Positions 3,310-31,387 of a DNA stretch of 32,000 nt are shown here, piece by piece. The translations under genes were made by a program, and so were the position numbers. The notes beneath the pieces are model-generated. The model saw only the letters and a program-made list of their open reading frames with translations, did not search any database and was not told where the DNA came from. Source of the stretch: an uncultured Nitriliruptoraceae bacterium (GTDB taxonomy: Bacteria > Actinomycetota > Nitriliruptoria > Nitriliruptorales > Nitriliruptoraceae); assembly GCA_963695235.1 (NCBI GenBank), contig OY968778.1, positions 2,389,136-2,421,135 on the forward strand, written 5' to 3'. Each line of letters opens with the position of its first letter. Within the stretch, counting starts at the first letter, position 1.

Positions 3310-4781
3310 GCCGCACCGCCGCCCGCGGCGAGGGGCTCGGGGTGCGGCTCGCCGATGCCGGACGGGGACGCGCCGACGGCTCGGAGGAACGCGGCAGCCT
3401 TGTCCAGGCTCTCCGCGTGCTCGTCGCCGGGGTCGGAGTCGGCGACGATGCCCCCGCCGGCGCCGTAGTCCGCGTGGCCGTCGTCGAGCGTGGCCGTCCT
3501 GATCGCGACCGACAGTGTCGCGGCCCCCGGTGCCAGGAAGCCGATGGCGCCGCAGTACCAGCCGCGCCGGACGGGTTCGAGCCGGTCGATCAGGCGCATC
3601 GCCGCGACCTTGGGGGCGCCCGTGATCGAGCCGCACGGGAACACCGCCCGCAGGAGCTCGCCGTAGCCGGTGCCCGGCCGCAGCCGCCCCTGGACGGTCG
3701 ACACGAGATGCCAGACGGTCGGATGGGCCTCCAGCCGGACCAGCTCCGGCACGCGGATCGATCCGGGTACGCACACACGCCCGAGGTCGTTGCGCTCGAG
3801 GTCGACGACCATGACGTTCTCCGCGCGGTCCTTGGCCGAGGTGACGAGGTCGTCCGCCAGCGCGGCGTCGAGTCCCGCGTCGGACGCCCGCGGCCGGGTC
3901 CCCTTCACCGGTCGGGTGCGGACCAGCGCACCGTCGACGTCGAGGAAGGTCTCGGGTGACACCGACGCGACCCCCAGCTCGGGCAGCACCGCGCCGTACG
4001 CGGCCGCGCTGTGCCCGCGCATCGCCCGGTACAAGGCCCAGACGTCGGCACTCCATCGGGCCGTGAGCCGCTGGGTCAGGTTCACCTGGAACACGTCACC
4101 CCGGCCGATGGCACGCAGGATCTCACGAACCGCGTCGAGGTGGCGCTCGCGAGGGAGGCTGCTGGTGACGGGCTGCCGTCGCTGGGGTCCGGCGCCGGGG
4201 TCTGCCGGTTCGGCCGATGCCAGGCGCCGGACGACCTCGTCAACGGTCCGGCGCCGCGCCCCGTGGCTGAGCAGGAGCGCCTCCGAGCGGTCCGGGGCGA
4301 CGGCCAACACGAGCCCGGCGACACGCAGCGACAGGTCCGGCGAGCGGCGGTCCCTCGGCGGACCGTCGCGGAGGGTCTCGACGCGCCGCGCGAGGTCGTA
4401 GGCGAGGGCGCCGACGAGACCGCCCGTGAACGGCGGCAGCGCGGCGTCGCGCGGGGCCCCAGGACCGACGCCGAGGGCACCGCCGAGCTCGTCGATGGCG
4501 CGGAACGGGTCCGTCCCGAAGGTGACGGACTCGGCACCGGGGGACAGCAGGACGGTCGTGTGTCCGTCGTCGACGAGCCGTGGTCCTCCGTGCGGGACGA
4601 CGTACGACCACCCCGCGCCCACTGGTGTGGGGGCCGATGCGGACTCCAACAGGTCGGCCGGCTGGAGGAGCGACGCGGCGCGGTCCAGGTCGATGCGCCC
4701 GTCGGCCAGCCGCGGGAGCGTCGTCACGGGTCGGACGGCGAGCCGGGTCAGGTCGGGCAGGGCGCGACCCATCCCGCTCAC
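3306..4781 (-). CDS. pabB: Aminodeoxychorismate synthase component I (chorismate-binding enzyme)
   Basis: 491 aa with the chorismate-binding C-terminal half (FPCGSITGAPK). The RPVKGTRPR motif carries the Lys typical of PabB rather than the Ala of TrpE. 4-nt overlap with the downstream lyase gene. Confidence 0.8.
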   Translation of the reverse strand: MSGMGRALPDLTRLAVRPVTTLPRLADGRIDLDRAASLLQPADLLESASAPTPVGAGWSYVVPHGGPRLVDDGHTTVLLSPGAESVTFGTDPFRAIDELGGALGVGPGAPRDAALPPFTGGLVGALAYDLARRVETLRDGPPRDRRSPDLSLRVAGLVLAVAPDRSEALLLSHGARRRTVDEVVRRLASAEPADPGAGPQRRQPVTSSLPRERHLDAVREILRAIGRGDVFQVNLTQRLTARWSADVWALYRAMRGHSAAAYGAVLPELGVASVSPETFLDVDGALVRTRPVKGTRPRASDAGLDAALADDLVTSAKDRAENVMVVDLERNDLGRVCVPGSIRVPELVRLEAHPTVWHLVSTVQGRLRPGTGYGELLRAVFPCGSITGAPKVAAMRLIDRLEPVRRGWYCGAIGFLAPGAATLSVAIRTATLDDGHADYGAGGGIVADSDPGDEHAESLDKAAAFLRAVGASPSGIGEPHPEPLAAGGGAA

Positions 4782-4785
4782 CCGC

Positions 4786-4953
4786 TCACGTGCTCGCCGG
4801 CACGCCGTACTTGCGGCGGAACGCCGTGTCGTCGAGCTGGTCGAGATCCGACTCGAGCTCCCGCTGGAAGGCGTCGGCCTGCGTCTCGTCGGAGAACGTC
4901 TGTGCCCACACGAGGGCTCCGGACTCCGCGATCTGCAGCTGGACGTCGACCAT
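4786..4953 (-). CDS. Small acidic hypothetical protein (55 aa from ATG 4953; upstream GTG starts at 5025/5094 possible)
   Basis: By my count, GC3 is about 95% from ATG 4953 onward and about 75% in the upstream part of the 102-aa track ORF. Stop lies 4 nt before the pabB start. Sequence MVDVQLQIAESGALVWAQTFSDETQADAFQRELESDLDQLDD... Confidence 0.5.
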   Translation of the reverse strand: MVDVQLQIAESGALVWAQTFSDETQADAFQRELESDLDQLDDTAFRRKYGVPAST

Positions 4954-5155
4954 CTGTGCGCCGTCGTAGCCGCCTCGGCGGCGCGTCAGCACACGGAAGT
5001 CGCGTCGAGGGGAACGCTCGGCCACGGTGTGTGCTCGCAGGGTCGGCAGGACGCGGACGGTACCCGCGAGGTCCGACACCGGACAACGTCGCACCGGCGG
5101 ACGCTCGACCGGCGCGGGTCTCGATAGGCTCGCCGGCCAGACGAACGCGGGTGCG

Positions 5156-5719
5156 ATGAAGGTCTACACGAAGTCCGGCGACGACGGCACGACCGGGCTG
5201 TTGTTCGGCGGGCGGGTCGACAAGGACGACCTGCGAACGACCGCCTACGGGACGGTCGACGAGGCGTGCAGCGCACTCGGTCTCGCCCGCGCCGAGCTGG
5301 ACGGCCACCTGCACGACCTGGTGCTCGAGGTGCAGCGGGAGCTGTTCGTCATCGGCGCGCAACTGGCCACCTCCGTCGGGCACTGGGACCGGTTGGTGGT
5401 CGGCGTCAGCCGGGTGGACACGGCGATGGTCGATGCGTTGGACGGGCGGATAGACGCCTGTGTCGCCCGGCACCCGATCCCGAAGCACTTCGTCGTGCCG
5501 GGGGGCACGCGGGCGGCGGCGGCCCTGGACCTCGCCCGGGCCGTGTGCCGCCGTGCGGAGCGTCACGTCGTCGCCATGCGACGCGCGGAGCTGCTCCCCG
5601 ACGACGCGCCGCTTCGCTACCTCAACCGTTGTGCCGACTACCTCTTCGTGCTCGCCCGCGAGGCCGAGGGCGAACACCTGCCGTCGCGCGCCGGCCGTGG
5701 AGTCGATCACCCCTCGTAG
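5156..5719 (+). CDS. PduO-type ATP:cob(I)alamin adenosyltransferase
   Basis: N-terminus MKVYTKSGDDGTTGL is the family signature. The ATG at 5156 is in frame within the 5027 track ORF. The 3' end overlaps the convergent panB by 13 nt (5707-5719). Confidence 0.85.
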   Translation: MKVYTKSGDDGTTGLLFGGRVDKDDLRTTAYGTVDEACSALGLARAELDGHLHDLVLEVQRELFVIGAQLATSVGHWDRLVVGVSRVDTAMVDALDGRIDACVARHPIPKHFVVPGGTRAAAALDLARAVCRRAERHVVAMRRAELLPDDAPLRYLNRCADYLFVLAREAEGEHLPSRAGRGVDHPS

Positions 5720-10047: not shown

Positions 10048-11394
10048 GTGGACAAGCAGCAGGAATACGTGCTCCGAACGGTCGAGGAGCGCGACGTCCG
10101 GTTCATCCGGTTGTGGTTCACCGACGTGCTCGGGTACCTCAAGAGCGTCGCCATCACCGCCGCGGAGCTCGAGAACGCCTTCGACGAGGGCATCGGCTTC
10201 GACGGGTCGGCGATCGACGGCTTCGCCCGGGTGCAGGAGGCCGACATGCTGGCCGTCCCCGACGCGTCGACCTTCCAGGTGCTGCCCTGGCGTCCCGAAT
10301 CGCAGGGTGTGGCGCGGATGTTCTGCGACATCATCACCCCCGACGGGCAACCGTTCGCCGCGGACCCCCGGTACGTGCTCAAGCGGACGCTGCAGCGCGC
10401 GGCGGACATGGGCTTCACGTTCTACATCCACCCGGAGATGGAGTTCTTCCTCTTCAAGGACTCCAAGACCCCTGAGCCGCTCGACAACGGCTCGTACTTC
10501 GACATGACCCCGCTCGACGTCCAGCAGGACTTCCGCCGGCAGGCGATCAACACCCTCGAACGGATGGGCATCAGCGTCGAGTTCTCGCACCACGAGGTCG
10601 CACCCTCCCAGCACGAGATCGACCTGCGCTACGCGGACGCGTTGACGATGGCGGACAACGTCATGACCTTCCGCCTCGTCGTGAAGGAGACCGCGCTCCA
10701 GCGGGGCGTGTACGCGACCTTCATGCCCAAGCCCCTGGAGGGGGAGTGGGGCAACGCCATGCACCTGCACCTGTCGCTGTTCGAGGGCGACACGAACGCG
10801 TTCCACGACGCGACCCACCCCTACCACCTGTCGAAGACGGCGCAGGCGTTCACGGCGGGGCTGCTGCGCCACGCCCGTGAGATCAGCGCGGTCACGAACC
10901 AATGGGTGAACTCCTACAAGCGGCTCACCGCGCAGCTCCACGGCCCGTTGCCCTCCGGCGAGGCGCCGGTGTTCGTGTCGTGGGGGCACTCCAACCGCAG
11001 CGCGCTGATCCGGGTGCCGATGTACAAGCCACGCAAGGGCGCGTCCACGCGCATCGAGTACCGCGCACCGGACCCCGCCTGCAACCCCTACCTCGCGTTC
11101 GCCCTGATCCTCGCGGCGGGCCTGAAGGGCATCGAGGAGGGCTACGAGCTGCCACCGGAGAACGAGGACAACGCGTTCGAGCTCACCGACGCCGAACGGG
11201 CCGCCGAGGGCATCGAGGCGCTGCCCGCGAGCCTCGGGGAGGCGCTGGCCGTCATGGAGTCCTCCGAGCTCGTCGCCGAGACGTTGGGCGAGCACCTCTT
11301 CGCGCACTTCCTCGTCAACAAGCGTCGCGAGTGGCAGGAGTACCGCGCACACGTGACGCAGTTCGAGCTCGATCGCTACCTGCCGTTGTTGTAG
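10048..11394 (+). CDS. glnA2: Glutamine synthetase family protein, GlnA2 type
   Basis: 448 aa from GTG 10048 (GGAG 7 nt upstream). FIRLWFTDVLG, HHEVAPSQHEIDL and NSYKRL motifs. Immediately upstream of glnE, as in mycobacteria. The position aligned by eye to the adenylylated Tyr appears to be Phe (DNAFELTDAE). Confidence 0.88.
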   Translation: MDKQQEYVLRTVEERDVRFIRLWFTDVLGYLKSVAITAAELENAFDEGIGFDGSAIDGFARVQEADMLAVPDASTFQVLPWRPESQGVARMFCDIITPDGQPFAADPRYVLKRTLQRAADMGFTFYIHPEMEFFLFKDSKTPEPLDNGSYFDMTPLDVQQDFRRQAINTLERMGISVEFSHHEVAPSQHEIDLRYADALTMADNVMTFRLVVKETALQRGVYATFMPKPLEGEWGNAMHLHLSLFEGDTNAFHDATHPYHLSKTAQAFTAGLLRHAREISAVTNQWVNSYKRLTAQLHGPLPSGEAPVFVSWGHSNRSALIRVPMYKPRKGASTRIEYRAPDPACNPYLAFALILAAGLKGIEEGYELPPENEDNAFELTDAERAAEGIEALPASLGEALAVMESSELVAETLGEHLFAHFLVNKRREWQEYRAHVTQFELDRYLPLL

Positions 11395-11402
11395 GGCGCG
11401 AC

Positions 11403-14400
11403 GTGGCCGCGCGCGCGCGAACGCTCCGAGGCCGCCTGGCGTCGGCCGGGGTCGACGTGTCGGCGGCCCTGCCCGCCCTGGTGCGGGCGGGCCTCGTCCG
11501 CAGCGGTGACGGCGGGCTGCTGCCGCCGGGAGCCGAGGTCCCGGTGCACGCCGTCGTGGACGACGACGTCCTGCTCGTGCTCTCGGAGGCCGCGGCACCC
11601 GACGACGCACTGGAGTGCCTGGTCGCCGTCGCGGAGCAGTCCCCGGCGCTGTTCGCCGCGGCACGGGACGACGGCGACTGGCTGCGACGCATCGGAGCCG
11701 TCGCAGGGGTGTCGCGGCCCCTCGGCGAGTTGCTGGCGCGCTTCCCCGACGCGGTGGAGGCGTTGCGCACGCTCGACGGCGTCGATGTCGCCTCGACCGC
11801 GTCGGCCGTCGAGGCCGCTGTGCGCGCGGGCGACGACCCGGCCGCGCAGGCGGCGGGCATCGCCGCGATCCGGCGCCGCGCCACGGCCGACATCGCGGCT
11901 CGGGATCTCACTGGCGTCACCGACCTCCCGGCGGTCGCGGCGGAGCTCGCGGGCCTCGCCGAGGCGGTGCTGACGGGGACGCTCGAGGCGGTGCACGGTC
12001 GGCTCGGCGGGGCGGACCGGGCCGCACGCATCGCCGTCATCGGCATGGGCAAGCTCGGTGGTCGCGAGCTCAACTACGTCTCGGACGTGGACGTCGTGTT
12101 CGTGCACGCGGCCACCGACGGGCACGACGACGCGGAGGCGGGCCGCGAGGCGCGTCAGGTGCTGTCGCACCTGCTGGAGCTGCTCAACAGCTCGACGACC
12201 ATGGGTCGCGCCTACGAGGTCGACCCGACCTTGCGTCCCGAGGGCCGAAGCGGGCCGCTCTCGCGGACGGTCGCGTCCTACGCGGCCTACTGGGAGCGTT
12301 GGGCGAAGACGTGGGAGTTCCAGGCGCTGTTGAAGGCACGCCCCGTCGCCGGTGATCACGAGCTCGGCGCGTCGTTGCTGGCCGCCGCGGAACCGTTCCT
12401 GTGGCCCGAGCGGCTCGATCCCGACGTCGTCGCGGAGATCCGTGCGATGAAGGCCCGGATCGAGGCGAAGCCCGAGGTGGTGCGACACCGTGAACGCCAG
12501 CTCAAGCTGGGCCCCGGCGGGATCCGTGACATCGAGTTCGCCGTGCAGCTCCTGCAACTCGTGCACGGGCGGGGCGATCCGTCCCTGCGTGAGACGGGGA
12601 CGCTTCCTGCCCTGGACGCGCTGGTGCGCAACGGCTATGTGGACGAGGACGACGCGGCTTCGTTCGCCGAGGCGTACCGGCGGCTGCGCACGGTCGAGCA
12701 CCGCCTGCAACTCGCCAACGAACGGCGAACACACACGATCCCCGAGGACCCCGAGCGGCAGGAGTGGCTCGCCCGCTCGTTGGGCTACCGGGCCGAGGGG
12801 GACACCGCGGCCCGGGCGCCGATGCTCCGTGACCTCAAACGGGTGCAGACCCAGGTCAGCGAGCTGCACGCCAAGCTCTTCTACCGGCCCCTGCTGGAGA
12901 CCTACGCCACCGTTCCGATCGCCGCCACCGGCGTCAGCATGCCCGTCGAGGTGTCGGGGATGACCGACGACGCAGCGGTCGAGCGGCTCGAGGCGTTGGG
13001 GTTCCGGAACGGCGGCGCTGCACTCCGGGACGTGCGGGCGGTCACCACAGGCCTGTCCCGTCGGGCCATCACGGCTCGGGCCGTGCTCCCGGCCGTGCTC
13101 CAGGTGTTGCAGGACGCGCCGGATCCCGACACCGGGTTGTCGACCTTCCGCGAGCTCGTCGAGGCGCAGGGAGAGTCCGCCGAGCTGCTCGGGTACCTGC
13201 GGGACCACCCGGCGGCAGCGGACCTCGTCGGACGGGTGCTCGGCACGAGTCGGGTGGCCGGCGAGCTGCTGCTCCGGCTGCCGCAGGGGGTCGACTGGCT
13301 CCGAGACGACCGCCTGCGCGACGAGCCGCGGACGCGCGACGAGCTGGTCCGCATGGCGGTCGCCAGGCTGCACTGGCAGGACACCACGGACGCGCTCCGG
13401 CGTTTCAAGCGCCTCGAGCTGCTCCGGATCGTCCTGCGCGACATCGCGGGTGAGGCGACCGTGCGAGGGGTGGGGGAGGAGCTCACTGCGCTCGGCGAGG
13501 CGTGCCTCACGGGTGCGCTGCGCGCCGAGCTCAGGCGGCAGGCGCAGCGACGCGGCCTGGCATCGCCCGACGAGCTGCCGGTCGGCATCGCGATCGTGGG
13601 CATGGGCAAGCTCGGGGGGCAGGAGCTGCACTACGTCTCGGACCTCGACGTGCTCTTCGTCCACGAGGCGGTGGCCGGCACCTCGGAGCGGGAGGCCACG
13701 GCCCTCGCACTCGAGGTGGCAGGCAACGTGCTCCGCAGCCTGTCCGACATCACCGCGGAGGGCACCGCCTTCGAGGTCGACGCGGACCTCCGACCGGAAG
13801 GCAAGAACGGCCCGCTCTCGCGCTCCTTCTCGTCGTACCGGGCCTACTGGGACCGGTGGGCGGAGCCCTGGGAGCACCAGGCGCTGCTGCGCGCCCGCCA
13901 CGTCGCGGGGGACCGTGACCTGGGCACGCGGCTCGTCCAGGCCGCGGAGCCCTACGCCTACCCCGCCGACGGCGACGGCGCGCTCCGGATGCGTCGCATG
14001 AAGGCGCGGCTCGAGAAGGAGCGGATCCCGCGACGGGTCGACCCCGAACGGCATCTGAAGCTCGGACCCGGCGGGCTGTCCGACGTCGAGTGGACGGTAC
14101 AGCTGCTCCAGCGACGGCATGGCGCCCGCCACGCAGCGGCACGGCATCCCGGCACGATGGCGGCGTTGGACGTGCTCCAGGACGACGGACTGATCGACCA
14201 CCGGGACGCGGTGTGGCTGCGGGACGGCTACCGGTTCCTCTCGCAGCTGCGCAACCGGCTGTACCTGTTGCGCCATCGGGACGTCGACGTACTGCCCGTG
14301 TCCCAGGCCCAGCTCGAGACGCTCGCCCGGTCGCTCGGATACGGGCGCGGTGCCTGGCAGGAGCTCGACGGGGAGCGCCGTCGTCATGCTCGGCACGTCC

Positions 14401-17757: not shown

Positions 17758-19191
<1,434 letters not shown>

Positions 19192-20690: not shown

Positions 20691-21710
20691 TCAGGCGCCG
20701 GGTTGCCCGGGCGAGGGCGCCCACGCCTTGGCGTCGATCGCCTGCTGGCCGGCGTGATAGCTGGAGCGGACCATCGGCCCGGCCTCGATGTGCGCGAACC
20801 CCAGCTCCACCTCGCCGTAGGTGCGGAACGCGGCGAACGTCTCCGGCGTGACGTACCGGTCCAGGTGCAGGTGCTGCGACGAGGGCTGGAGGTACTGCCC
20901 GATCGTGAGGGTGTCCACCCCGGCGGCACGCAGGTCCCGCATGCAGGCGTAGACCTCCGCGTCCGTCTCGCCCATGCCGAGGATCAGGTTGGACTTCACG
21001 GCCGTGGTCGCCGGGAACCGGGCGCGTGCGAGTGCCAGGAACGCGAGGCCACGGTCGTAGTCGAAGGCGGGCCTGATGACGGGGAACAGCCGGCGGGTCG
21101 TCTCGAGGTTGAAGGCGAACACGTCGGGCTCGGCCGCGACGACCTGCTCGAGCGCCAGTGCACCCCGGGTGGGCTCCTGGCCGTAGCCGAAGTCGCTCGG
21201 CAGTACCTCGACGCCGACCTCGGGTGTTCGCGAGCGGATCTGACGGATCGTCTCGGCGACCAGCCAGGCGCCACCGTCGTCGAGGTCGTCACGCGCCACC
21301 ATGGTCACGACCGCGAAGCGCAGGCCGAGGTGCTCGACGGCCTCGGCGACCCGGCGCGGCTCGTCCACGTCGTAGCCCTTGGGCTTGCCCGTCTTGATCT
21401 GGCAGAAGCCGCAGCGGCGGGTGCAGTCCTCGCCTCCGATGAGGAAGGTCGCCTCGCGCATCTCCCAGCACTCGTAGATGTTCGGGCAGGCCGCCTGGGC
21501 GCAGACCGTGTTGAGCTCGAGCCCCTCCATCAACCGTGTCACGTCGGTGAAGTTGCTGCCGTAGGAGGCCTTCACCTTGAGCCAGTCGGGCTTGCGGCCG
21601 GCAGGCAACGAGGTGTCCACCGTGCGACGGACGACCCCGGCGCGCTGGACGCGCTCCTTGCCGAGGACGGCGAGCGTGCGGGCCCCCTCCGGGATCACGG
21701 GCTCGGTCAC
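20691..21710 (-). CDS. lipA: Lipoyl synthase (radical SAM)
   Basis: 339 aa from GTG 21710. N-terminal cluster motif CAQAACPNIYEC and radical-SAM motif CTRRCGFC. Start overlaps the lipB stop (GTGA, 21707-21710). The track ORF start at 21875 lies inside lipB. Confidence 0.93.
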   Translation of the reverse strand: MTEPVIPEGARTLAVLGKERVQRAGVVRRTVDTSLPAGRKPDWLKVKASYGSNFTDVTRLMEGLELNTVCAQAACPNIYECWEMREATFLIGGEDCTRRCGFCQIKTGKPKGYDVDEPRRVAEAVEHLGLRFAVVTMVARDDLDDGGAWLVAETIRQIRSRTPEVGVEVLPSDFGYGQEPTRGALALEQVVAAEPDVFAFNLETTRRLFPVIRPAFDYDRGLAFLALARARFPATTAVKSNLILGMGETDAEVYACMRDLRAAGVDTLTIGQYLQPSSQHLHLDRYVTPETFAAFRTYGEVELGFAHIEAGPMVRSSYHAGQQAIDAKAWAPSPGQPGA

Positions 21711-22444
21711 GAGGCAGCCTTGTGGACGTCGAGGAGGTGCAGGTCGGACAGGGGTTCGAGGGTAGCCCCGAGCACGTCGGCGGCTGCACGCTCGACGGCG
21801 TCGACGACGGCTGGCATGGCGACCTCCACACCCAGGCTGGCGAGCGAGCAGACCCCGCGGTCGACGATCCCGCACGGGACGATGCCGTCGAAGTGGGCGA
21901 GATCGGGTGCGACGTTGAGTGCGAAGCCGTGCGATGTCACCCCGCCCGTCGCGACCCGCACCCCGATCGCCGCGATCTTCGCCCCACCGACCCAGACCCC
22001 GGTGAAGCCGGGTGAGCGGCCAGCCGCCACGTCGAAGGTCGCGAGCGCCCGGATCAGCAGCTCCTCCAGCGCCCGGACGTAGTCGACGACACCACGGATC
22101 GACGCGAGCCGCACGATCGGGTAGCCCACCAGCTGCCCCGGGCCGTGATAGGTGACGTCGCCCCCGCGATCGACCTCGACGAGCTCGATCCCGTGACGGG
22201 CGCGCTCGGCCGCGTCGAAGAGCACGTGTGACCGGTCGGTCCGCTTGCCGAGCGTGTACACGGGCGGGTGCTCGAGCAGGAGGAGCACGTCCCGACCGAG
22301 ACCGTCCTGGCGTCGCGCCACGAGGCGCCGCTGCACCTCCCAGGCATCGAGGTAGGGCACGAGGCCGAGGTCCACCACGGCCAGGGGCAGGTCCGCCTCC
22401 GCACGCAGCGAGGCCGCCGACGGGCGCTGGCTCCCCGGCGCCAT
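21707..22444 (-). CDS. lipB: Octanoyltransferase (lipoyl(octanoyl) transferase)
   Basis: 245 aa from ATG 22444. RGGDVTYHGPGQLVGYPI and PCGI motifs. ATG overlaps the sucB stop (ATGA, 22442-22446). Confidence 0.9.
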   Translation of the reverse strand: MAPGSQRPSAASLRAEADLPLAVVDLGLVPYLDAWEVQRRLVARRQDGLGRDVLLLLEHPPVYTLGKRTDRSHVLFDAAERARHGIELVEVDRGGDVTYHGPGQLVGYPIVRLASIRGVVDYVRALEELLIRALATFDVAAGRSPGFTGVWVGGAKIAAIGVRVATGGVTSHGFALNVAPDLAHFDGIVPCGIVDRGVCSLASLGVEVAMPAVVDAVERAAADVLGATLEPLSDLHLLDVHKAAS

Positions 22445-23817
22445 CAGACCCCCAGTTCGGGACCGAAGTCGTGGGTCTGCAGCACGTAGCGCAGGTCCTG
22501 GAGGAAGCGCGCGGCGTCCGCTCCGTCGAGCATGCGGTGGTCGTAGGACATGCAGAGGTAGGTCATCCACCTGATCGCGATCGAGTCTCCGTAGTCGTCC
22601 GACACCACGACGGGGCGCTTCTCGATCGCGGCTGCCGCCAGGATCGCGACCTCCGGCGGGTTGAGGATCGGGGTGTCGAACAACGTGCCGACGGAGCCCG
22701 TGTTGGTCACCGTGAAGGTCCCCCCCGAGATCTCGTCGGGTGTGAGCTTGCGGTTGCGGGCTCGGGTCGCGAGGTCCGCGATGCGCCCGGCGATCCCCGG
22801 GACCGTCAGGTCCTGGGCATCCTTGATGTTGGGCACGAGCAGTCCGCGTTCCGTGTCCACCGCGATGCCGAGGTTGATGGCGCGGTGGAAGGTCGCCGTG
22901 CCGGCCTCCATGTCCATGGAAGAGTTCACCACCGGGTGGCGCGGGAGGACCATGCACACCGCCCGGGCGATGATCGGCAGCGGTGAGAGACCCGCGCCGT
23001 GCGCGGCGCGGAACGCATCCTTCTTCGCCGTCCGGAGGTTCATGACGTTGGTCATGTCGACCTCGACGGCGGCGGTCAGCTGCGCCGTGGTCTGCAGCGA
23101 CTCCATCATCGCCCGGGCGATGGCCTTGCGGACCCGCGACAACTCCTGGGTGACGGTGCGCTGGCCGCCGAAGTCGATCTGCGTCGGCGAGGCCGGTGGC
23201 CGTGCCGGGTCGTCGGGAGCCGACGGAGCCGGCGACGACGGGCGGGTACCAGCCGGTGCGTCCGGGGCCGAGCCGCCGGCGGCGACGGCGCGCTCCGCGT
23301 CGGCACGGGTGATGCGACCTCCCGGTCCGCTGCCCCGCACGTCGTCGGCTGGGAGCCCGGCCTCGCGCAGCAGGCGGCGGACGAGCGGCGAGGTCAGCAC
23401 GCGACGGCCTGCGTCCGGGCCGGTGTCGTCCGATCCCGCGTCCGCGGTGGAGGCGCTGTCGCGGCCGTCGTCGTCGGCGTCCTTCGCGGCCTCGGCGTCC
23501 TCGTCGGTGTCTGCCTCGGTCTCGTCGGCTGCGCCGTCGGTCGTTCCGGTGCCTGCGTCGGTGTCCTTGGTGGGGGTGTCGGAGGCGTCTCCGATGACGG
23601 CGATGACCTGGCCGACCTCGATGGTGTCGTCGACGTCGGCGCGGAGCTCGGTGACGGTGCCTGCGATGGGGGAGGGGATCTCGGTGTCGACCTTGTCGGT
23701 GGAGATCTCGACGATGGGTTGGTCGACGGTGACCTCGTCGCCGACCTCGACGAGCCAGGCGGTGATGACGCCTTCGGTGACGGATTCTCCCAGCTGGGGC
23801 AGCTCGACCTCGGCCAC
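22444..23817 (-). CDS. sucB: Dihydrolipoyllysine-residue acyl(succinyl/acetyl)transferase E2, single lipoyl domain
   Basis: 457 aa from GTG 23817 (AGGAG upstream). Lipoyl domain with the EISTDKV lipoyl-Lys codon at 23692-23694, acidic linker, E3-binding domain (TSPLVRRLLREAGL...GSGPGGRITRAD), and catalytic domain with DHRMLDG. The track ORF (850 aa) runs into lpd as shadow sequence. Confidence 0.92.
   Translation of the reverse strand: MAEVELPQLGESVTEGVITAWLVEVGDEVTVDQPIVEISTDKVDTEIPSPIAGTVTELRADVDDTIEVGQVIAVIGDASDTPTKDTDAGTGTTDGAADETEADTDEDAEAAKDADDDGRDSASTADAGSDDTGPDAGRRVLTSPLVRRLLREAGLPADDVRGSGPGGRITRADAERAVAAGGSAPDAPAGTRPSSPAPSAPDDPARPPASPTQIDFGGQRTVTQELSRVRKAIARAMMESLQTTAQLTAAVEVDMTNVMNLRTAKKDAFRAAHGAGLSPLPIIARAVCMVLPRHPVVNSSMDMEAGTATFHRAINLGIAVDTERGLLVPNIKDAQDLTVPGIAGRIADLATRARNRKLTPDEISGGTFTVTNTGSVGTLFDTPILNPPEVAILAAAAIEKRPVVVSDDYGDSIAIRWMTYLCMSYDHRMLDGADAARFLQDLRYVLQTHDFGPELGV
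23437..23817 (-). repeat. Direct repeat copy A (lipoyl domain + acidic linker, 5' end of sucB)
   Basis: Base-by-base comparison with 25338-25718 (offset 1901) gives 378/381 identical. Mismatches at 23477, 23534 and 23552. Confidence 0.95.
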
Positions 23818-23870
23818 TTCGGTGCGCTCCTGCTCGGTACGGGGTGGGGGCTCGTCGTGTCGGTGGGCGG

Positions 23871-25718
23871 TCAGCCGTGCAGGGCGCGACCGGCCAACGC
23901 GAGGTGGGCCTCGCCGATGGCCTCGCTGAACGACGGGTGCGCGTGGATCAGGTGGGCGACCTCGGTGGGCAACGCCTCCCAGTTGTAGATCAGTTGTGCC
24001 TCCGCGATCAGGTCGGTGGCCCGTGGACCGACGATGTGGACACCGAGGACACGACCGGCACCGCCCTCGGCGTCGTCGTCCTTCTCCGCGACGAGCTTGA
24101 CCATGCCGGTCGCCTTCACCATCGCCGCGCGCCCCAACGCCTGGAACGGGTAGCGCTCGACGACGACGTCGAAGCCGGACTCCTTCGCTGCCGCCTCGGT
24201 GTAGCCGACGGACGCGACCTCGGGGTGCGAGTAGGTGACCTTCGGGACGCCGCGGTAGTCGATGGGCGCCACGTCGAGCCCGGCGAGCTGGTCGGCCACG
24301 AGGAAGCCCTCGGCGAACGAGGCGTGCGCCAGACCCAGGGTGGGGATCACGTCGCCGACCGCCCAGATGCCCTCGACGTCCGTGCGGCAGTACTCGTCCA
24401 CCACCACGAAGCCACGATCGGTCGCCACGCCAGCCGCATCGAGCCCGGCTCCCTCGGTGACGGGCGCGCGGCCGACGGCGACGAGCAGCACGTCGGCGGT
24501 GACCTCCTCGGTGCCCTTGCCGGTGTCGATCGTGCAGGTGACACCGTCGTCGGAGACGCTGACGTCGGTCATCTTGACGCCGGTCATGGTGCCGATGTCG
24601 CGCTTGCGGAACGCGCGCGCGATCTCCTTGGACGCGTCGGCGTCCTCGAGCGGCAGCAGACGGTCCTCGAGCTCGACGACGGTGACGTCGACGCCGAACG
24701 CCGACCACGCGGTCGCGAACTCCATGCCGACGGCGCCCGAGCCGAGGACCAGCGCGGAGCCCGGCAGCTCCTGGAGGTGCAGGGCGTGGTCCGAGGAGAG
24801 CACCCGCTCGCCGTCGAACGGTGCGAACGGCAGCTCGCGTGGCGTCGAGCCCGTCGCGACCACGATCGCCGGCGCCGAGAGGGTGCGCGTGCCGTCGTCG
24901 GTCTCGACCTCGACCGTGTTCGGGCCGGTCAAGCGGCCGGTGCCGAGGATCGTCTCGATGCCGCGACTCTTCAGCGCGCCCTGGAGGCCCTTCCACATCT
25001 TGTCGACGACGGCGTCCTTGTGGGCGTTGAGTGCCGCCACCTCGATGCCGTGGTAGTCGAGGGCGACGCCGAAGTCGGCGGCGTCCTGGGCCGCTTCGGC
25101 GACCTCGGCCGTCTGCAGCACCGCCTTCGTGGGGATGCAGCCCCAGTGCAGGCAGGTGCCGCCCACCTTGTCGCGCTCGATCAGGGCCACCTCGAGGCCG
25201 AGCTGCGCCGCACGCAGGGCCGTCGAGTACCCGCCGGTGCCTGCCCCGAGGACGATGACGTCGACGTCGTGCCCCTCGCCCTTCTGCACGCGGCCGCCGC
25301 GCGGTGCATCGGCGGGAGCCGGGGGCGGGCCGGTCGGCGCGTCCGCGGTGGAGGCGCTGTCGCGGCCGTCGTCGTCGTCGTCCTTCGCGGCCTCGGCGTC
25401 CTCGTCGGTGTCTGCCTCGGTCTCGTCGGCTGCGTCGTCGGTCGTTCCGGTGTCTGCGTCGGTGTCCTTGGTGGGGGTGTCGGAGGCGTCTCCGATGACG
25501 GCGATGACCTGGCCGACCTCGATGGTGTCGTCGACGTCGGCGCGGAGCTCGGTGACGGTGCCTGCGATGGGGGAGGGGATCTCGGTGTCGACCTTGTCGG
25601 TGGAGATCTCGACGATGGGTTGGTCGACGGTGACCTCGTCGCCGACCTCGACGAGCCAGGCGGTGATGACGCCTTCGGTGACGGATTCTCCCAGCTGGGG
25701 CAGCTCGACCTCGGCCAC
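23871..25718 (-). CDS. lpd: Dihydrolipoyl dehydrogenase (E3) with N-terminal lipoyl domain fusion
   Basis: 615 aa from GTG 25718 (GAGGAG upstream). Residues 1-~77 form a lipoyl domain (EISTDKV, Lys codon 25593-25595), followed by a D/E/T-rich linker. The classical E3 follows: [11 protein letters not shown], the redox disulfide [13 protein letters not shown], the NAD-binding motif [11 protein letters not shown], and a C-terminal HAHPSFSE. Confidence 0.92.
25338..25718 (-). repeat. Direct repeat copy B (lipoyl domain + acidic linker, 5' end of lpd)
   Basis: 378/381 identical to 23437-23817. Identity ends exactly at the shared GTG start codon: upstream flanks differ (ggtggcagg vs ttcggtgcg). 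Confidence 0.95.
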
Positions 25719-25991
25719 GGTGGCAGGCTCCTCGTCGGTGCAGGGTGTCGGTGCAGGGTGCGGGGCGCGGTGCAGGTGCGGGTCGCGGGGTCGGCGGGAG
25801 GCGTCGACCGCGTAGACCGCGACGCTAGCGGACCCTCGGCAGGGTCGCGTGCCCCGACAGGGGGCTGACGGCTACCGTTCCCGACCGTGTCGCGCGGTCC
25901 ACGGCCGGATGGTCGCGGCACCGTGCCCACCTCCACGGCGGTGCTCCCTGAGGGCCCGGCACGGCCGCCGCCTCGACCCGCGGAGCAGCTC

Positions 25992-27128
25992 GTGACCGAC
26001 CGATCGCGACCGACCGCACTGACCGACGCGCACCGCCGCGCCGGCGCCAAGCTGGGCGGGTTCGCCGGCTGGGAGATGCCCCTGCGGTTCGCGGGGACGC
26101 TGGCGGAGCACGCCGCGGTCCGCGAGCACGTCGGGGTGTTCGACGTCTCGCACCTGGGCACCGTCTGGATCGAGGGGGACGACGCGCAGGCCGTCGTCGC
26201 GGCGACGTTAACGAACGACCCGGCCGTCCTCGGGGACGGCGCGTCGCAGTACACGCTGTGCTGCACGGACGACGGCGGCATCGTCGACGACCTGATCGCG
26301 TACCGGCTCGACGCGGCGAGGTGGCTGGTCGTGCCCAACGCCGCGAACACGGCGGCGGTCGTCGACGCCCTGGTCGCGGCCGCGAGCGACCGGGACGCCG
26401 CCGTGCACGACCAGAGCGGCGAGCGGGCCATCCTGGCCGTCCAGGGTCCAGCCGCCTTGCCGCTGGTCGACCGGATCCTTCGGGACCAGGGCGCCGCGAC
26501 GGCAGCGAGCGACGTCGCCCACCTCGGTGTCGTCGACGTCGAGGTGGCCGGCGGGCGCGTGCTCGTGTGCAGGACGGGCTACACGGGCGAGCCGGGCTGT
26601 GAACTGGTGCTGCCGAACGTGCTCGCCGACCGATGGTGGACGGCGCTCGTCGACGCGGGCGCCGTCGCGTGCGGGCTGGCGGCCCGCGACACGTTGCGGC
26701 TGGAGATGGGCTACCCGCTCCACGGCAACGAGTTGTCCGAGGACCACGATCCGTTCGAGGCGCGACTGGCGTGGGCCGTGAAGCTGGACCGGGGAGCGTT
26801 CCGCGGCTCGGAGGCGCTCGCCCGGCGGAAGGCGGCGGGTCCGGTGCGCAGGCTCTGGGGGCTGCGGGTCGACGGCAGGCGCCCGGTTCGTGCGGGCATG
26901 TCGGTCCACTCGGCCGGCTCGGTGGTCGGGACGCTGACCTCGGGGACCCTCTCCCCGACGCTCGGGGTCCCCATCGCGTTGTGCTACCTCGACGTCGCAC
27001 TCTCGCCCGGCGACCGCGTCGACGTCGACCTCCGTGGGACCTCCGTCGGGGCGGAGGTCGTCCGCCCGCCGTTCGTCGACCGCGACCCGCGCGGCACACC
27101 GTCTGCCCCGGCCCGGGCCCACCCATGA
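25992..27128 (+). CDS. gcvT: Glycine cleavage system aminomethyltransferase (T protein)
   Basis: 378 aa from GTG 25992 (GGAG 5 nt upstream). GFAGWEMPLRF, GVFDVSHLG, TGYTGEPGCEL and RDTLRLEMGYPLHGNEL motifs. Confidence 0.92.
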   Translation: MTDRSRPTALTDAHRRAGAKLGGFAGWEMPLRFAGTLAEHAAVREHVGVFDVSHLGTVWIEGDDAQAVVAATLTNDPAVLGDGASQYTLCCTDDGGIVDDLIAYRLDAARWLVVPNAANTAAVVDALVAAASDRDAAVHDQSGERAILAVQGPAALPLVDRILRDQGAATAASDVAHLGVVDVEVAGGRVLVCRTGYTGEPGCELVLPNVLADRWWTALVDAGAVACGLAARDTLRLEMGYPLHGNELSEDHDPFEARLAWAVKLDRGAFRGSEALARRKAAGPVRRLWGLRVDGRRPVRAGMSVHSAGSVVGTLTSGTLSPTLGVPIALCYLDVALSPGDRVDVDLRGTSVGAEVVRPPFVDRDPRGTPSAPARAHP

Positions 27129-28204
27129 AGGTCGTGGTCGCACCGGACAGCTTCGGCGGCACCCTGACCGCGCCGGAGGTGGCCGCCGCGATCGCGGAGG
27201 GGTGGCGCGAGGTCCGGCCGCGGGACGAGCTCGTGCTCGTGCCGATGTCCGACGGCGGCGAGGGACTGCTCGACGTGCTGGCGACCGCAGACGACACCTG
27301 GGTGTCGACCGAGGTCTCGGGGCCGCTCGGCCATCCGGTCGAGGCAGCGCTGCTCCTGCGCCCGGACCACACCGCCGTGGTCGAGGCCGCTCGCGCGTGC
27401 GGGCTCGCGCTCGTCCCCGAGGGCCGTCGGTCGCCGTTGCGGGCGACGTCCTACGGGGTCGGACAGCTCCTCGACGCCGCGGTGGACGTCGGGGCGCGCA
27501 CCGTGCTGCTGGGGTTGGGTGGCAGCGCGACCGTCGACGGGGGTGCGGGGGCCCTCACGGCGCTCGGGTACCGGATCAGGACAGACGACGGCTCCGGCCT
27601 CAAGGTGGGCGGCGACGACCTGCACCGTGTCGATCGCATCGAACGGGGGTGGTCCGTGGACCCGTCCCGACTCGTCCTCCAGCTGCTGGCCGACGTGAGC
27701 ACCACCCTCGGGGACGCGGCCCGTGTCTTCGGGCCGCAGAAGGGGGCGTCGGCCGACGACGTCGTCGTCCTCGAGCGGGGGCTGCGGACCTGGGCCGACG
27801 TGGTGGGGCGCGACCTCCCGGCGCGCCCGGACCTCGAGCGGGAGGCCGGGTCGGGGGCGGCCGGTGGGCTGGGATTCGGGCTCGCTGCCGCCTTCGGCGG
27901 CCCGCTGGTGTCTGGCGCCGAGCGGGTCGGGGAGCTCGTCGGTCTGCCGACCGAGCTGGACGACGCCGAGGTGGTGGTCACCGGCGAGGGGCGGCTCGAC
28001 GCGACGACGGTCGCTGGCAAGGTCGTGTCGCACGTCGCGGCGCTGGCCCGCGCACGCGGCGTCCGAGCGCTGGCGGTGGCGGGACAGGCGCTCGAGGTCC
28101 CCGCCGCGCTGGATGCCGTCGAGCTCTCCGGGCCGGACGGCCCGGGGCCGGATCCGGCGGCTGACGTCCGGACGGCGGCCGCGCGGCTGGCCCGGCGGAT
28201 CTGA
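27125..28204 (+). CDS. Glycerate kinase family protein
   Basis: 359 aa. MKVVVAPDSFGGTLTA...VPMSDGGEG N-terminus and C-terminal VVTGEGRLDATTVAGKV. ATG 27125 overlaps the gcvT stop (ATGA). Confidence 0.85.
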   Translation: MKVVVAPDSFGGTLTAPEVAAAIAEGWREVRPRDELVLVPMSDGGEGLLDVLATADDTWVSTEVSGPLGHPVEAALLLRPDHTAVVEAARACGLALVPEGRRSPLRATSYGVGQLLDAAVDVGARTVLLGLGGSATVDGGAGALTALGYRIRTDDGSGLKVGGDDLHRVDRIERGWSVDPSRLVLQLLADVSTTLGDAARVFGPQKGASADDVVVLERGLRTWADVVGRDLPARPDLEREAGSGAAGGLGFGLAAAFGGPLVSGAERVGELVGLPTELDDAEVVVTGEGRLDATTVAGKVVSHVAALARARGVRALAVAGQALEVPAALDAVELSGPDGPGPDPAADVRTAAARLARRI

Positions 28205-28310
28205 GCGTCCGGCTCGGTACACTCCGACGGGCACCCGCCATCACACGGCCGGTGCGACCCGGGGATGCGCCGCACCGTCATCCCGACGAGACCAAGCGAG
28301 GAGCGTGCCC

Positions 28311-28676
28311 GTGAGCGCCGACACGAGCGTCGACCAGACGACGACCACCGTCGTGAGCTTGACCGAGACCGCAGCGGAGAAGGTCCGGGGCTTCCTCGTC
28401 GACCAGCCGGACGTCGACGACGTCGCGCTGCGCGTCGCGGTGCAGGCCGGCGGTTGCGCGGGCTTCCGCTACGCGCTGTTCTTCGACGACCGCCAGCTCG
28501 AGGGTGACCTCGAGGAGAGCTTCCACGGGATCACCGTGCGCATCGACAAGATGTCGACGCCCTACCTCCAGGGTGCGGTCATCGACTGGAAGGAGTCGCT
28601 CGAGGCCTCCGGGTTCTCGATCGACAACCCCAACTCGTCGGGGTCCTGCGCCTGCGGCGACAGCGCGACCTTCTGA
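28311..28676 (+). CDS. erpA: HesB/IscA/ErpA-family iron-sulfur cluster insertion protein
   Basis: 121 aa from GTG 28311 (GAGGAG 7 nt upstream). GGCAGFRY and the C-terminal GSCACG cysteine motif. Confidence 0.88.
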   Translation: MSADTSVDQTTTTVVSLTETAAEKVRGFLVDQPDVDDVALRVAVQAGGCAGFRYALFFDDRQLEGDLEESFHGITVRIDKMSTPYLQGAVIDWKESLEASGFSIDNPNSSGSCACGDSATF

Positions 28677-28679
28677 GCC

Positions 28680-28700
28680 GTTCGGTGCGCCGCACCGAAC
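28680..28700 (+). terminator. Short GC-rich hairpin right after erpA
   Basis: GTTCGGTG cgccg CACCGAAC: 8-bp stem starting 4 nt after the stop codon. No U-tract. Confidence 0.3.
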
Positions 28701-28730
28701 CGGTGGGCGTGAACGCCGTCCCCGCGTGAC

Positions 28731-29273
28731 GTGGACGACGACGGCACGGGCTGGAACGAGCTCCTGCTGTCGCTCTGGAGTGGCGCGACCCGGGATGCCG
28801 TGGTCACCCGCATCGAAGGGGCGCTGCGAGGCAGGCGAGGTTGGCTCGTCCGTGTCTTCGCCGATCCCGACGGCGTCCGCCCGGAGCTGACCGAGACCGT
28901 CCACGCCGTGGTGCTCGCGGGGATCCGCGACGAGACCGGTGCCGATCTCGACGCACTCGGCAGCCAGGCGGCCTGGGACTGCTACGAGCAGGTCTGGGCC
29001 GCGCTCGGCGACCGCTGGGCCGACGGAGGCTCGCTCGCCTCCGTGCCGCTCACGAAGGAGCCGTCGGTCGACGCCTTCGTCCGGACGCTGCCCACCGAGG
29101 CTGCGGTGTGCGCCGGTGCGGACGTCCTCGACGGCCGGGTGGACCCGTTGTGGCTCCGAGGCAGGCTGCGCGTGGACGTCGACGGCCTGCGCGCGTACCT
29201 GGCCCTGGACGGTGGGCTCGCCCCGGAGGCGGTCCACACGACGATCATGCGCATCCTGCGGGAGGCGAGTTGA
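28731..29273 (+). CDS. Hypothetical protein (180 aa), no family recognised
   Basis: Consistently high GC3 in this frame and non-repetitive, acidic, Trp-rich sequence (GWNELLLSLWSG..., AAWDCYEQVWAALGDRWADGG). GTG start 28731 is uncertain. Confidence 0.6.
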   Translation: MDDDGTGWNELLLSLWSGATRDAVVTRIEGALRGRRGWLVRVFADPDGVRPELTETVHAVVLAGIRDETGADLDALGSQAAWDCYEQVWAALGDRWADGGSLASVPLTKEPSVDAFVRTLPTEAAVCAGADVLDGRVDPLWLRGRLRVDVDGLRAYLALDGGLAPEAVHTTIMRILREAS

Positions 29274-29294
29274 GCCGGACGCGGGGCCCCGGAC

Positions 29295-29537
29295 TCACCG
29301 ACGCCGCTCGACGAGGAAGCGCCAGGTGCCGTCCTCGTCGCCCGCTTCGACCAGCTGGTGCCGTTGGAGCCGGCACCAGACCGGGACGTCGACCTTCGCC
29401 GCCGGATCCGTGGCGAGCAGGAGCACACGGGCGCCGACCGTGACCTCGGTGACGGCGGAGGCGAGTTCGATCACGGGCATCGGGCAGGCGAGCCCACGTG
29501 CGTCGACGACGCGTTCGTGCGAGCCGCGCTCCGGCAT
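29295..29537 (-). CDS. TusA/SirA-like sulfur-carrier family protein
   Basis: 80 aa from ATG 29537 (alternative start at 29564). DARGLACPMPV contains the family CPxP cysteine motif. Begins 36 nt downstream of the USP gene stop. Confidence 0.7.
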   Translation of the reverse strand: MPERGSHERVVDARGLACPMPVIELASAVTEVTVGARVLLLATDPAAKVDVPVWCRLQRHQLVEAGDEDGTWRFLVERRR

Positions 29538-29573
29538 CCGGCGCTCCTGGCGGGGGGCGGCCACGGTAGCCAG

Positions 29574-30725
29574 TCAGCGTGCCTGGACCTCGACCGCGTC
29601 CGTGCGCAGCGTCACCGCCCCGCGGTCGACGTCGTAGCTGATCTCGGCGCCGCGGAGCTCCGGGGCCTCGTGGACCGCCACCATCACCGCGGCGATCGCT
29701 GCGTTGACGCCACTGGCGGTCACCGTGACGGTCGCACGCACGTGGGGTCGAGGGTCGCCGGCCGGCCACCAGGCCATGAGGTGGTCGGTGTCGCCGGCGG
29801 AGCGCAGGACGCGATCGAGGTGGTCGGGGGTGACGGCGCGGTCGTCCGGCAGCCGTGCCGTGACCACGATCCGGACCGGATGCTGGTCGTCGGGCACGGT
29901 CCGCGGTGCGGGGCTGCCCGCCGCCTCGACCGCGTCGACCAGCCCGGTCTCGCGGCTGGGGCCGGTGTCGATGGCAACCAGGAGCGTGGCGTCCGGGGCC
30001 GCCCAGGCGAGGTGGGTGGTGGCGGCCCGCAGGCCGGACACGGTGGGGGCCACCGTCGCGATCACGAGGTGGTCCGGGCGGGCGAACGCAGCGACGGCCT
30101 GGTGGGTGCGCCGCGGGTCGTGGTGGACCCGGTCGCCGAGGGCCATGACCTGTGGAGGCAGTGCCGGCTCGCGCGCCCCGGTGCGCAGCACGGTGGCCGG
30201 CTCGTCGTAGGCCTGGCTGAACCGGTGCGCGAGATCGGCCGCCAGCTCGAGGCCGCTCTCGCCGCCGGGCAACAGGTGGTCGTCGGACACGGGGAGCAGC
30301 ACCCGCTGCGCCTGGTCGGTCCCCAGCCGGACGATCGCGAGCGGGGTGGAGGAGCGCCCGACGATCTGGTCGATCAAGGTGCCGAACACGTCGGTCGTCG
30401 AGCTGCTGCCGCGCCAGCCCATGAGGACCAACGTCGCGCCCAGCTCGTCGAGCGCACGCAGCACGCCGTCCGCGGCGCGCTGCGCGGTGACCACCCTCCC
30501 GCGGGCGGTCACGCCGAGGTCGCGCGCGATCTCCTCGGCGAGGGACAGGCCGGACCAGGCGTGCGCCTGCTCGTCGGCCGGTGCATCGGGATGGAGCACG
30601 GTGATGACCTCGACCGTGCCCCCGTCGGACCTGGCGATGTGCGCGGCGCAGGCCAGCAACGGTCGGACCGAGGTCGGGTTGGCGACCGGCACCACGATCC
30701 TGGTCCCAAGCCCCGGTCGCACCAT
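29574..30725 (-). CDS. Tandem universal stress protein (USP) domains with ~110-aa uncharacterised C-terminal extension
   Basis: 383 aa from ATG 30725 (GAGGAG 6 nt upstream). Two USP-like alpha/beta units (RIVVPVANP...LVLMGWRGSS...GRSSTPLAIVR; RVLLPVSDD...). A C-terminal segment VRIVVTARLPDD...ISYDVDRGAVTLRTDAVEVQAR follows. The 550-aa track ORF N-terminus is Arg/Pro shadow sequence. Confidence 0.7.
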   Translation of the reverse strand: MVRPGLGTRIVVPVANPTSVRPLLACAAHIARSDGGTVEVITVLHPDAPADEQAHAWSGLSLAEEIARDLGVTARGRVVTAQRAADGVLRALDELGATLVLMGWRGSSSTTDVFGTLIDQIVGRSSTPLAIVRLGTDQAQRVLLPVSDDHLLPGGESGLELAADLAHRFSQAYDEPATVLRTGAREPALPPQVMALGDRVHHDPRRTHQAVAAFARPDHLVIATVAPTVSGLRAATTHLAWAAPDATLLVAIDTGPSRETGLVDAVEAAGSPAPRTVPDDQHPVRIVVTARLPDDRAVTPDHLDRVLRSAGDTDHLMAWWPAGDPRPHVRATVTVTASGVNAAIAAVMVAVHEAPELRGAEISYDVDRGAVTLRTDAVEVQAR

Positions 30726-30922
30726 GGTTGCTCCTCGTTGCGGGTCCGTCAGCGTAGGAGCCGGGCCGGGCTCGCGCCAGGGATGGTCGGCCGCGCACGC
30801 GCGCTCGCCGTCGTCGCGTGTGCGTCGGGCGGCTTCGCGCCGCACCCGTCCCGCGGGCGTCGCGCGGTACCGTGCGACCCGCGTGGTCGGCAGCCGTGCC
30901 GGTGGTCGCGCGAGGAGGCGAG

Positions 30923-31387
30923 ATGCGGGTCCTTGTGGTGTCGGAGGACGACAAGGAACGTCAACGCGCCTCGAGCGCGCTGCTGCTGCACCCGGGCACC
31001 GAGGTGGTCGAGGTGTCGACCGCCGCCGAGGTGCGCGAGCTCCTGCTGGACGGCTCCAGCTCGTTCGACGTGCTCGTGGTGGACGGCGACCTGCGGCCGC
31101 GCGGCGGCTTCGCCACCCTCTACGACCTCCGGGCGCGTGCGGAGCTCGAGGATCGTCCCGCGGTGCCGGCACTGGTGCTGACCGCCCGGGAGCAGGACCG
31201 CTGGCTCGCGAGCTGGGCGGGCGCAAACGAGGTGCTGCGCAAGCCGGTCGACCCCTTCGAGCTGGCCCGCCGCGTCGCGGGGCTCGAGGGCGCGGACCCG
31301 GCCCCCTACGGCGACGCGGGTGCCGCAGCCGCGCAGGTCGCGGTCGCCACCCGCGAGCATCGCTCCCAGCGCGTCGGCACGGCCTGA
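30923..31387 (+). CDS. Stand-alone CheY-like receiver domain protein
   Basis: 154 aa from ATG 30923 (GAGGAGG 5 nt upstream). Acidic pocket VVSEDD, putative phospho-Asp in DVLVVDGDL, LVLTAR, and LRKPVDP. Confidence 0.75.
   Translation: MRVLVVSEDDKERQRASSALLLHPGTEVVEVSTAAEVRELLLDGSSSFDVLVVDGDLRPRGGFATLYDLRARAELEDRPAVPALVLTAREQDRWLASWAGANEVLRKPVDPFELARRVAGLEGADPAPYGDAGAAAAQVAVATREHRSQRVGTA

Follow-up and report, generated by a model that had tools for sequence, protein, structure and literature searches.

We propose that two neighbouring genes of the 32-kb window analysed here (the whole stretch of Nitriliruptorales DNA, to which window positions refer throughout) begin with the two copies of one old duplicated module, which has very probably been re-homogenised repeatedly by episodic gene conversion, that is, by concerted evolution. 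The genes are lpd, which encodes a dihydrolipoyl dehydrogenase (E3), and the gene downstream of it, which encodes a dihydrolipoyl acyltransferase (E2) and was called sucB in an initial annotation made from the letters alone; the module consists of a lipoyl domain (LD) and a linker. In the ancestor of the Nitriliruptorales the 5′ module of the E2 gene, probably comprising ribosome-binding site, start codon, LD and linker, would have been copied onto the front of the upstream lpd, producing a chimeric LD-E3 beside a single-LD E2 and leaving the two modules as direct repeats about 1.9 kb apart. Homologous recombination may then have overwritten one module with the other, repeatedly and in different lineages, by non-reciprocal gene conversion or, equivalently, by cycles of unequal exchange, presumably with machinery of the RecA type. 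In the window genome the latest such event would have spanned the whole 381-nt homologous module, and it is likely to be recent, as no synonymous change has accumulated since. Both LDs are probably lipoylated and serve one common set of partners (E1p, OdhA, the E2 catalytic site, E3 and LipB), which would make their homogenisation harmless or favoured. We speculate that the E3-borne LD might add a further swinging arm to a small complex of trimeric E2.

A near-identical module at the start of two genes

When the two gene starts are aligned, window positions 23437-23817 and 25338-25718 are identical at 378 of 381 bases, a match far above chance level, and a repeat search of the window recovered the pair independently (23437-23736 and 25338-25637, 1901 from start to start). 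The direct repeat described in the initial annotation is thus borne out by both approaches. In the lpd copy, the LD occupies approximately codons 1-77, with the lipoyl-lysine in the motif TDKV, and is followed by about 50 codons of acidic linker. Comparison of the two copies by the Nei-Gojobori method gives no synonymous differences over 93.3 synonymous sites and three non-synonymous ones, in agreement with the earlier claim that the LD is identical at every synonymous site. The three mismatches (23552/25453, 23534/25435 and 23477/25378), which read GGC, GGC and GCC in E2 and GAC each time in E3, all fall within the acidic linker and replace Gly, Gly and Ala with Asp in E3, as had been annotated. 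Both genes lie on the minus strand, and the match sets in at their GTG start codons; 5′ of these only about half of the positions agree, with a GGAG ribosome-binding motif in common. At the other end clear identity stops within the linker, about 12 codons before the peripheral-subunit-binding domain (PSBD) of E2 and about 25 codons before the FAD-binding domain of E3. The alignment therefore upholds the annotated limits and the different flanks, but the sharpness of the boundaries is no special feature, since they are simply the ends of homology. No other direct repeat above 80% identity is present anywhere in the 32-kb window. The internal duplication of glnE, which corresponds to its two GlnE nucleotidyltransferase halves (12028-12394 and 13585-13951), is 72-80% identical, and glnA2 and glnA match in inverted orientation at 75% (11045-11133 and 18022-18110).

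The lpd gene is a single open reading frame (ORF) that encodes the LD, the linker and a complete E3 with FAD, NAD and dimerisation domains, with high GC content at third codon positions (GC3) throughout. Its redox-active CxxxxC is CLHWGC, within GGTCLHWGC, and solved E3 structures, among them P64K (1BHY, 1OJT) and 5U25, match residues 151-614. The family PF00364 (Biotin_lipoyl) scores 78.3 and 77.0 bits in the two proteins over residues 3-75, against a cut-off of 22.1, and the DK motif of the lipoyl-lysine is present in both window copies and in 46/46 of the LDs compared below. GC3 is about 0.9, and the LD is strongly conserved at the protein level.

Judged from its sequence, the E2 is of the actinobacterial pyruvate dehydrogenase (PDH) type represented by AceF and DlaT, and not a proteobacterial SucB. 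Its best PDB matches are 9Y7V, 6ZZL and 6ZZI, and the closest solved proteins are Mycobacterium tuberculosis DlaT and Corynebacterium glutamicum AceF. The C-terminus (window 22444-22500) aligns with 6ZZI without gaps, HDFGPEL against ANFEGDL, which places F-G-P where 6ZZI has F-E-G, the three-residue Phe-containing insertion before the C-terminal helix. This insertion has been tied to the trimeric, coreless actinobacterial E2p and reported for the classes Actinobacteria and Acidimicrobiia (Bruch et al., bioRxiv 10.1101/2020.07.24.212647); when the text of the paper was searched, Nitriliruptor did not occur in it.

Age of the duplication and probable concerted evolution within genomes

To place the window in context, one genome per species was scanned for relatives of LD-E3, and the LD, the E3 body and the E2 catalytic domain were mapped in 80 loci (designated here by L and a number). 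Every Nitriliruptorales locus retrieved carries LD-E3 followed by a single-LD E2, and long contigs found by way of E2 proteins contain the same locus. In the outgroups (Jatrophihabitantaceae, Streptomyces, Actinocorallia, Streptosporangiaceae and Acidimicrobiia) the E3 is plain, and the E2 that comes after it has one or two LDs. As the architecture is common to all Nitriliruptorales loci and missing from the outgroups, the duplication and fusion are old and order-wide. In three groups of loci (L003/L006/L008, L014/L031 and L016/L027) each LD clusters with its counterparts from the same gene, which puts the duplication before the split of those species, and in some clades the two LDs differ by 12-24%. 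The initial annotation had offered a very recent domain duplication as an alternative and had stated that the case is not ancient paralogy; neither survives this distribution of architectures and diverged, gene-specific LDs. On the sequences compared, we regard the window as a case of ancient paralogy, recently re-homogenised in this genome. A search of a plasmid collection for other LD-E3/E2 pairs gave no match covering the LD.

In an Egicoccus sp. (L164, GCA_041821065.1, 1850-3995) the E3 is called as 474 aa from a start at 2571, which leaves 720 nt uncalled, and an LD lies at 2133-2357 in frame with the E3 body; either the LD-E3 start was missed by the gene call or the linker contains a stop or frameshift. 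In a JGI metagenome contig (L170, 3300076002, Ga0645779_01336) positions 4001-5458 encode an E2 whose LD is 89% and whose catalytic domain is 75% identical to those of the window. Its context differs, with an EamA transporter gene upstream and no E3, lipB or lipA, and it is either a relocated E2 or a second E2 in some relative.

The pattern expected of concerted evolution is seen in the 23 genomes in which both LDs are complete, 46 LDs in all. Within a genome, the LD of E3 and the LD of E2 share 74.5-100% DNA identity, reaching 100% in the window, L010, L018 and L029 and 98-99% in L007, L011, L034, L035 and L036. The nearest neighbour is the paralogue of the same genome for 27/46 LDs, and in 13/23 genomes the two LDs are closer to each other than to any LD elsewhere. 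Mean distances between genomes are nearly the same whichever LDs are compared (E3-E3 0.169, E2-E2 0.173, E3-E2 0.172), with 0.077 within genomes. In a neighbour-joining tree the LDs pair by genome or by small clade and never form two deep clades of E3-LDs and E2-LDs. Identical tracts are mosaic, being partial in L004, L008, L009 and L017, and in L004 and L017 the match is perfect only over the 3′ two-thirds. In L029, and apparently also in L011 and L018, the tract extends some 15-20 nt upstream of the LD start used in the alignment, and in the loci aligned its 3′ end always lies in the linker. Among the long contigs found by way of E2 proteins, the LDs of L165 and L166 are identical at 231/231 positions, with identity running over about 340 nt, those of L167-L169 at 227-228/231, and those of the Egicoccus isolate at 208/231.

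Synonymous divergence (dS) agrees with this. The two window paralogues have a dS of 0 and those of unconverted genomes one of 0.3-0.62; between orthologous LDs it is 0.16-0.63, and the E3 body of the window has a dS of at least 0.49 to any relative. The comparison of LD and E3-body dS across relatives, which the initial annotation had suggested as a check, thus sets an LD paralogue value of 0 against at least 0.49, and together with the within-genome clustering and the mosaic tracts it supports the gene-conversion tract that had been put forward there. Diverged E3-LDs keep the TDKV lysine and have a low ratio of non-synonymous divergence (dN) to dS (in L025, dN 0.022 and dS 0.56), which places the E3-borne LD under purifying selection and marks it as a functional domain.

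As a bacterial case of concerted evolution that acts on a domain and links two separate genes of the same enzyme complex, this one is well resolved: conversion events of various ages, along with mosaic tracts, can be seen throughout an entire order. The data also give Nitriliruptoria a PDH or 2-oxoglutarate dehydrogenase (ODH) system that combines a single-LD E2, assigned by sequence to the trimeric actinobacterial type, with an E3 that carries the second LD, and so raise the question of whether the E3-borne LD is a working swinging arm.

Competing explanations and the question of a recombination cassette

If the window genome is seen alone, its 99.2% identity and lack of synonymous differences would equally suit a very recent duplication that put the lipoyl module of E2 in front of lpd, either in this genome or in its direct ancestors, with no older paralogy behind it. 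We consider this extremely unlikely, as LD-E3 occurs in every Nitriliruptorales locus examined, including lineages with 12-24% diverged LDs that group by gene, and independent fusion at one site in every lineage is implausible. A duplication or homogenisation in silico, by assembly or polishing, has a similarly slim chance of being the cause: repeats are error-prone in assemblies and many contigs of metagenome-assembled genomes (MAGs) break at the LD, but the window copies differ at three sites, lie in different intact frames with different flanks and sit on a contig of 3.17 Mb, and independent assemblies in number, among them long contigs of 0.15-2 Mb, show the same within-genome LD pattern. 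That purifying selection and codon bias kept the copies identical by themselves, without recombination, can be given almost no weight. Although GC3 near 0.9 and a highly conserved LD protein would act in that direction, orthologous LDs and unconverted paralogues have nevertheless diverged at synonymous sites to the extent given above, and the low-complexity linker, a region that varies freely from one genome to the next, is identical in the window as well.

Repeated gene conversion of an old module most reasonably fits these observations, and some points weigh against it. The direction of the last transfer finds no marker, as no residue stably tells the LDs of E3 from those of E2 among unconverted genomes, and the window LD lies equally far from the two sets. 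No genome in the collections exceeds about 78% E3 amino-acid identity to the window, for which reason the last conversion cannot be bracketed on the tree. All three post-conversion differences add Asp to E3, which could hint at selection on the E3 linker, three sites being too few for a test. Recombination itself is inferred and not observed directly. Finally, MAG assemblies are prone to mis-joining and mis-polishing of repeats, yet isolates and long contigs agree with the MAGs.

The initial annotation went further and read the repeats as a built-in switchable or amplifiable cassette. On such a reading, a RecA-dependent deletion would remove E3 and leave the lpd promoter driving E2, or amplification would serve to alter E3 dosage. 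The geometry described in that annotation is correct: a crossover would be in frame and would remove 1901 bp (the E3 body, the 53-bp spacer and one repeat), leaving LD-E2 behind the lpd upstream region. The same deletion property holds, however, for any direct-repeat pair. No dedicated recombinase was found, the window ORFs scanned containing no recombinase or invertase domain and the neighbours being gcvT, lipB, lipA, mscS and glnA; and among about 30 complete related loci there is no amplified form and, apart from one contig, no deleted form. We therefore judge a functional cassette to be very unlikely.

The exception is a Nitriliruptorales metagenome contig of 2409 nt (L082, the same as L162; JGI 3300011189, Ga0136558_1017884), which matches the predicted deletion product: LD-E2 (271-1701) has the N-terminal part of gcvT (1-153, minus strand) immediately upstream and no E3 in between. 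In its closest relative, L163, an LD-E3 lies upstream, the LDs are identical at 140/141 nt and the contig ends inside an LD. For these reasons L082 most probably arose when the assembler cut across a perfect LD repeat, along a path A-R-C that skips the E3 loop, and less probably by a real deletion. A protein search with the LD only, made for the E3 partner of L082, picked none out, its output being swamped by two-LD E2 fragments. A metagenome scan on the E2 body for E3-less loci yielded only 2/80 loci from Nitriliruptorales. The glycine cleavage system also uses E3. Since PDH, ODH and the adjacent glycine cleavage system need E3, its deletion is probably deleterious, and E3 is kept at this position in every other related locus. 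That the repeats recombine in nature to give viable E3-deleted or E3-amplified genomes, with L082 as a real example, is accordingly a long shot; if it were true, the shared module would be a recombinational switch of E3 dosage in a core operon.

Variation among close strains is the remaining observation that could be taken to favour a cassette. In three near-identical strains (L167, L168 and L169) 4/11 variable sites within 9.5 kb fall in the two LD-plus-linker modules, an excess with a rough binomial p of about 0.016, and the sole indel between another pair of strains (L165 and L166) is a 9-nt one, GACCGACGA, in the E3 linker of the repeat. Both observations point to exchange or slippage that is still going on, short of proof. 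In these two sets of strains no other part of the locus varies as much within populations as the repeat does.

Known systems, assembly effects and the surrounding locus

The closest likeness to the window E3 is P64K of Neisseria meningitidis, or the N. gonorrhoeae protein 5U25 (602 aa), which also consists of an N-terminal LD, a flexible linker and a complete E3. Further LD-E3 chimeras are Cupriavidus PdhL, Clostridium magnum AcoL, Mycoplasma PdhD and pneumococcal DLDH, and the LD of P64K closely resembles the LDs of Neisseria E2p. The chimeric nature of P64K is already in the title of Tozawa et al. 2001 ('Chimeric dihydrolipoyl dehydrogenase P64K'), as listed among the references of PMC6270654. 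Unlike P64K, the window fusion belongs to the actinobacterial class Nitriliruptoria and stands beside a single-LD, PCI-type E2, and the Neisseria protein is no more than a distant relative of its E3 body. In its catalytic domain, which aligns gap-free with 6ZZI and has the Phe insertion position, the window E2 resembles C. glutamicum AceF and M. tuberculosis DlaT; corynebacterial and mycobacterial E2p, however, have 2-3 LDs and a plain E3, whereas here the E2 has one LD and the E3 carries the other.

Duplicated LD-plus-linker modules within one operon are also found in Escherichia coli AceF, whose three tandem LDs are classic internal repeats able to recombine. The aceF repeats of E. coli K-12 lie in one gene and share 74-75% DNA identity, in contrast to the 99% seen here between two genes 1.9 kb apart. 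Gene conversion between bacterial paralogues is well established for the tuf genes and rRNA operons. The duplicated mtrA of methanogens (PMC4632066) is another example of concerted evolution. As in the tuf, rRNA and mtrA cases, the LD paralogues are closer within a genome than orthologues are between genomes, and show mosaic tracts and synonymous identity. The difference is that only a domain-sized module is converted here, between two otherwise unrelated genes; since only that module is common to both, its ends set the limits of the tract. A search of the available literature found no paper that brings lipoyl domains and gene conversion together in a relevant sense. LD-E3 chimeras and gene conversion between paralogues are both already known; the case is real, clean and order-wide, but unsurprising.

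The repeat has practical consequences for assembly. At least nine short-read contigs begin or end within the LD (L012, L019, L020, L021, L023, L026, L028, L032 and L163), and a number of E3 bodies stand alone on orphan contigs of 1.3-2 kb, flanked by partial LDs. Such breaks are what de Bruijn assemblies would be expected to show if near-identical repeats are common in many more genomes. The repeat thus fragments short-read assemblies at lpd/E2 into orphan E3 contigs and 'partial' gene calls, and may also yield false gcvT-E2 joins, so that metabolic inference from MAGs of this clade can wrongly lose E3. In three long-contig MAGs the E3 reading frame is broken: L027 and L035 have early stops, and in L034 the tblastn match is split. 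Such interruptions are probably long-read indel errors rather than pseudogenes. The LD-only protein search returned very many fragments of about 200 aa, named 'partial biotin/lipoyl-containing protein', which contain two LDs and lie at contig ends in Corynebacterium, Mycobacterium, Arthrobacter and other genera. Tandem LDs that are nearly identical within an E2 thus seem to disrupt many assemblies of Actinobacteria as well.

The window is placed in Nitriliruptorales by its relatives, the best non-self E3 match being 78% identical; its own proteins are singletons. The features of the locus are collected in Table 1. Their order is gcvT (divergent), then lpd, E2, lipB, lipA, mscS and glnA, followed by glnE, glnA2, amtB, nadE and panB, and the neighbourhood from gcvT to panB is a conserved actinobacterial housekeeping block.

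Table 1. Coordinates of the shared module, its host genes and their neighbours in the window
Feature	Position	Strand	Description
Repeat copy 1	25338..25718	-	First 381 nt of lpd: GTG, lipoyl domain, linker
Repeat copy 2	23437..23817	-	First 381 nt of the E2 gene ('sucB'); 378/381 against copy 1
lpd, chimeric LD-E3 dihydrolipoyl dehydrogenase, 615 aa	23871..25718	-	Biotin_lipoyl, Pyr_redox_2, Pyr_redox, Pyr_redox_dim (Pfam)
lpd-E2 spacer, 53 bp	23818..23870	-	Holds the E2 ribosome-binding site GGAG; outside the repeat
E2 dihydrolipoyl acyltransferase, 457 aa	22444..23817	-	LD, E3-binding domain, catalytic domain (Pfam) with the active-site motif DHRMLDG (DHRxxDG)
lipB, octanoyl/lipoyl transferase	21707..22440	-	Directly 3′ of E2; start codon not fixed
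lipA, lipoyl synthase	20691..21875	-	Start codon not fixed
lpd-gcvT divergent intergenic region, 168 bp	25719..25886	.	Two perfect tandem 13-nt units at 25735-25760
gcvT, glycine-cleavage T protein	25887..27128	+	Divergent from lpd (Pfam)

Beyond the locus, the region 27000-31200 contains long ORFs of high GC3 that have no Pfam match, including 27034-28164 (+), 28278-29237 (-) and 29358-31181 (+). The only domains recognised there are Fe-S_biosyn (27723-28676, +) and Usp (29574-31226, -), and the gene calls in this region are uncertain. An Rfam scan of the whole window, which would include a glycine riboswitch before gcvT, gave no matches, and a promoter and terminator scan of 21500-26500 found none, with a consensus unsuited to high-GC actinobacteria. 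In the divergent region between lpd and gcvT the 13-nt unit reads CACCCTGCACCGA on the lpd strand, and its tandem pair abuts the lpd ribosome-binding site on the upstream side. A degenerate third copy lies further upstream. The region is rich in G runs on the plus strand, and the tandem units could be a candidate operator in the lpd/gcvT divergent promoter region.

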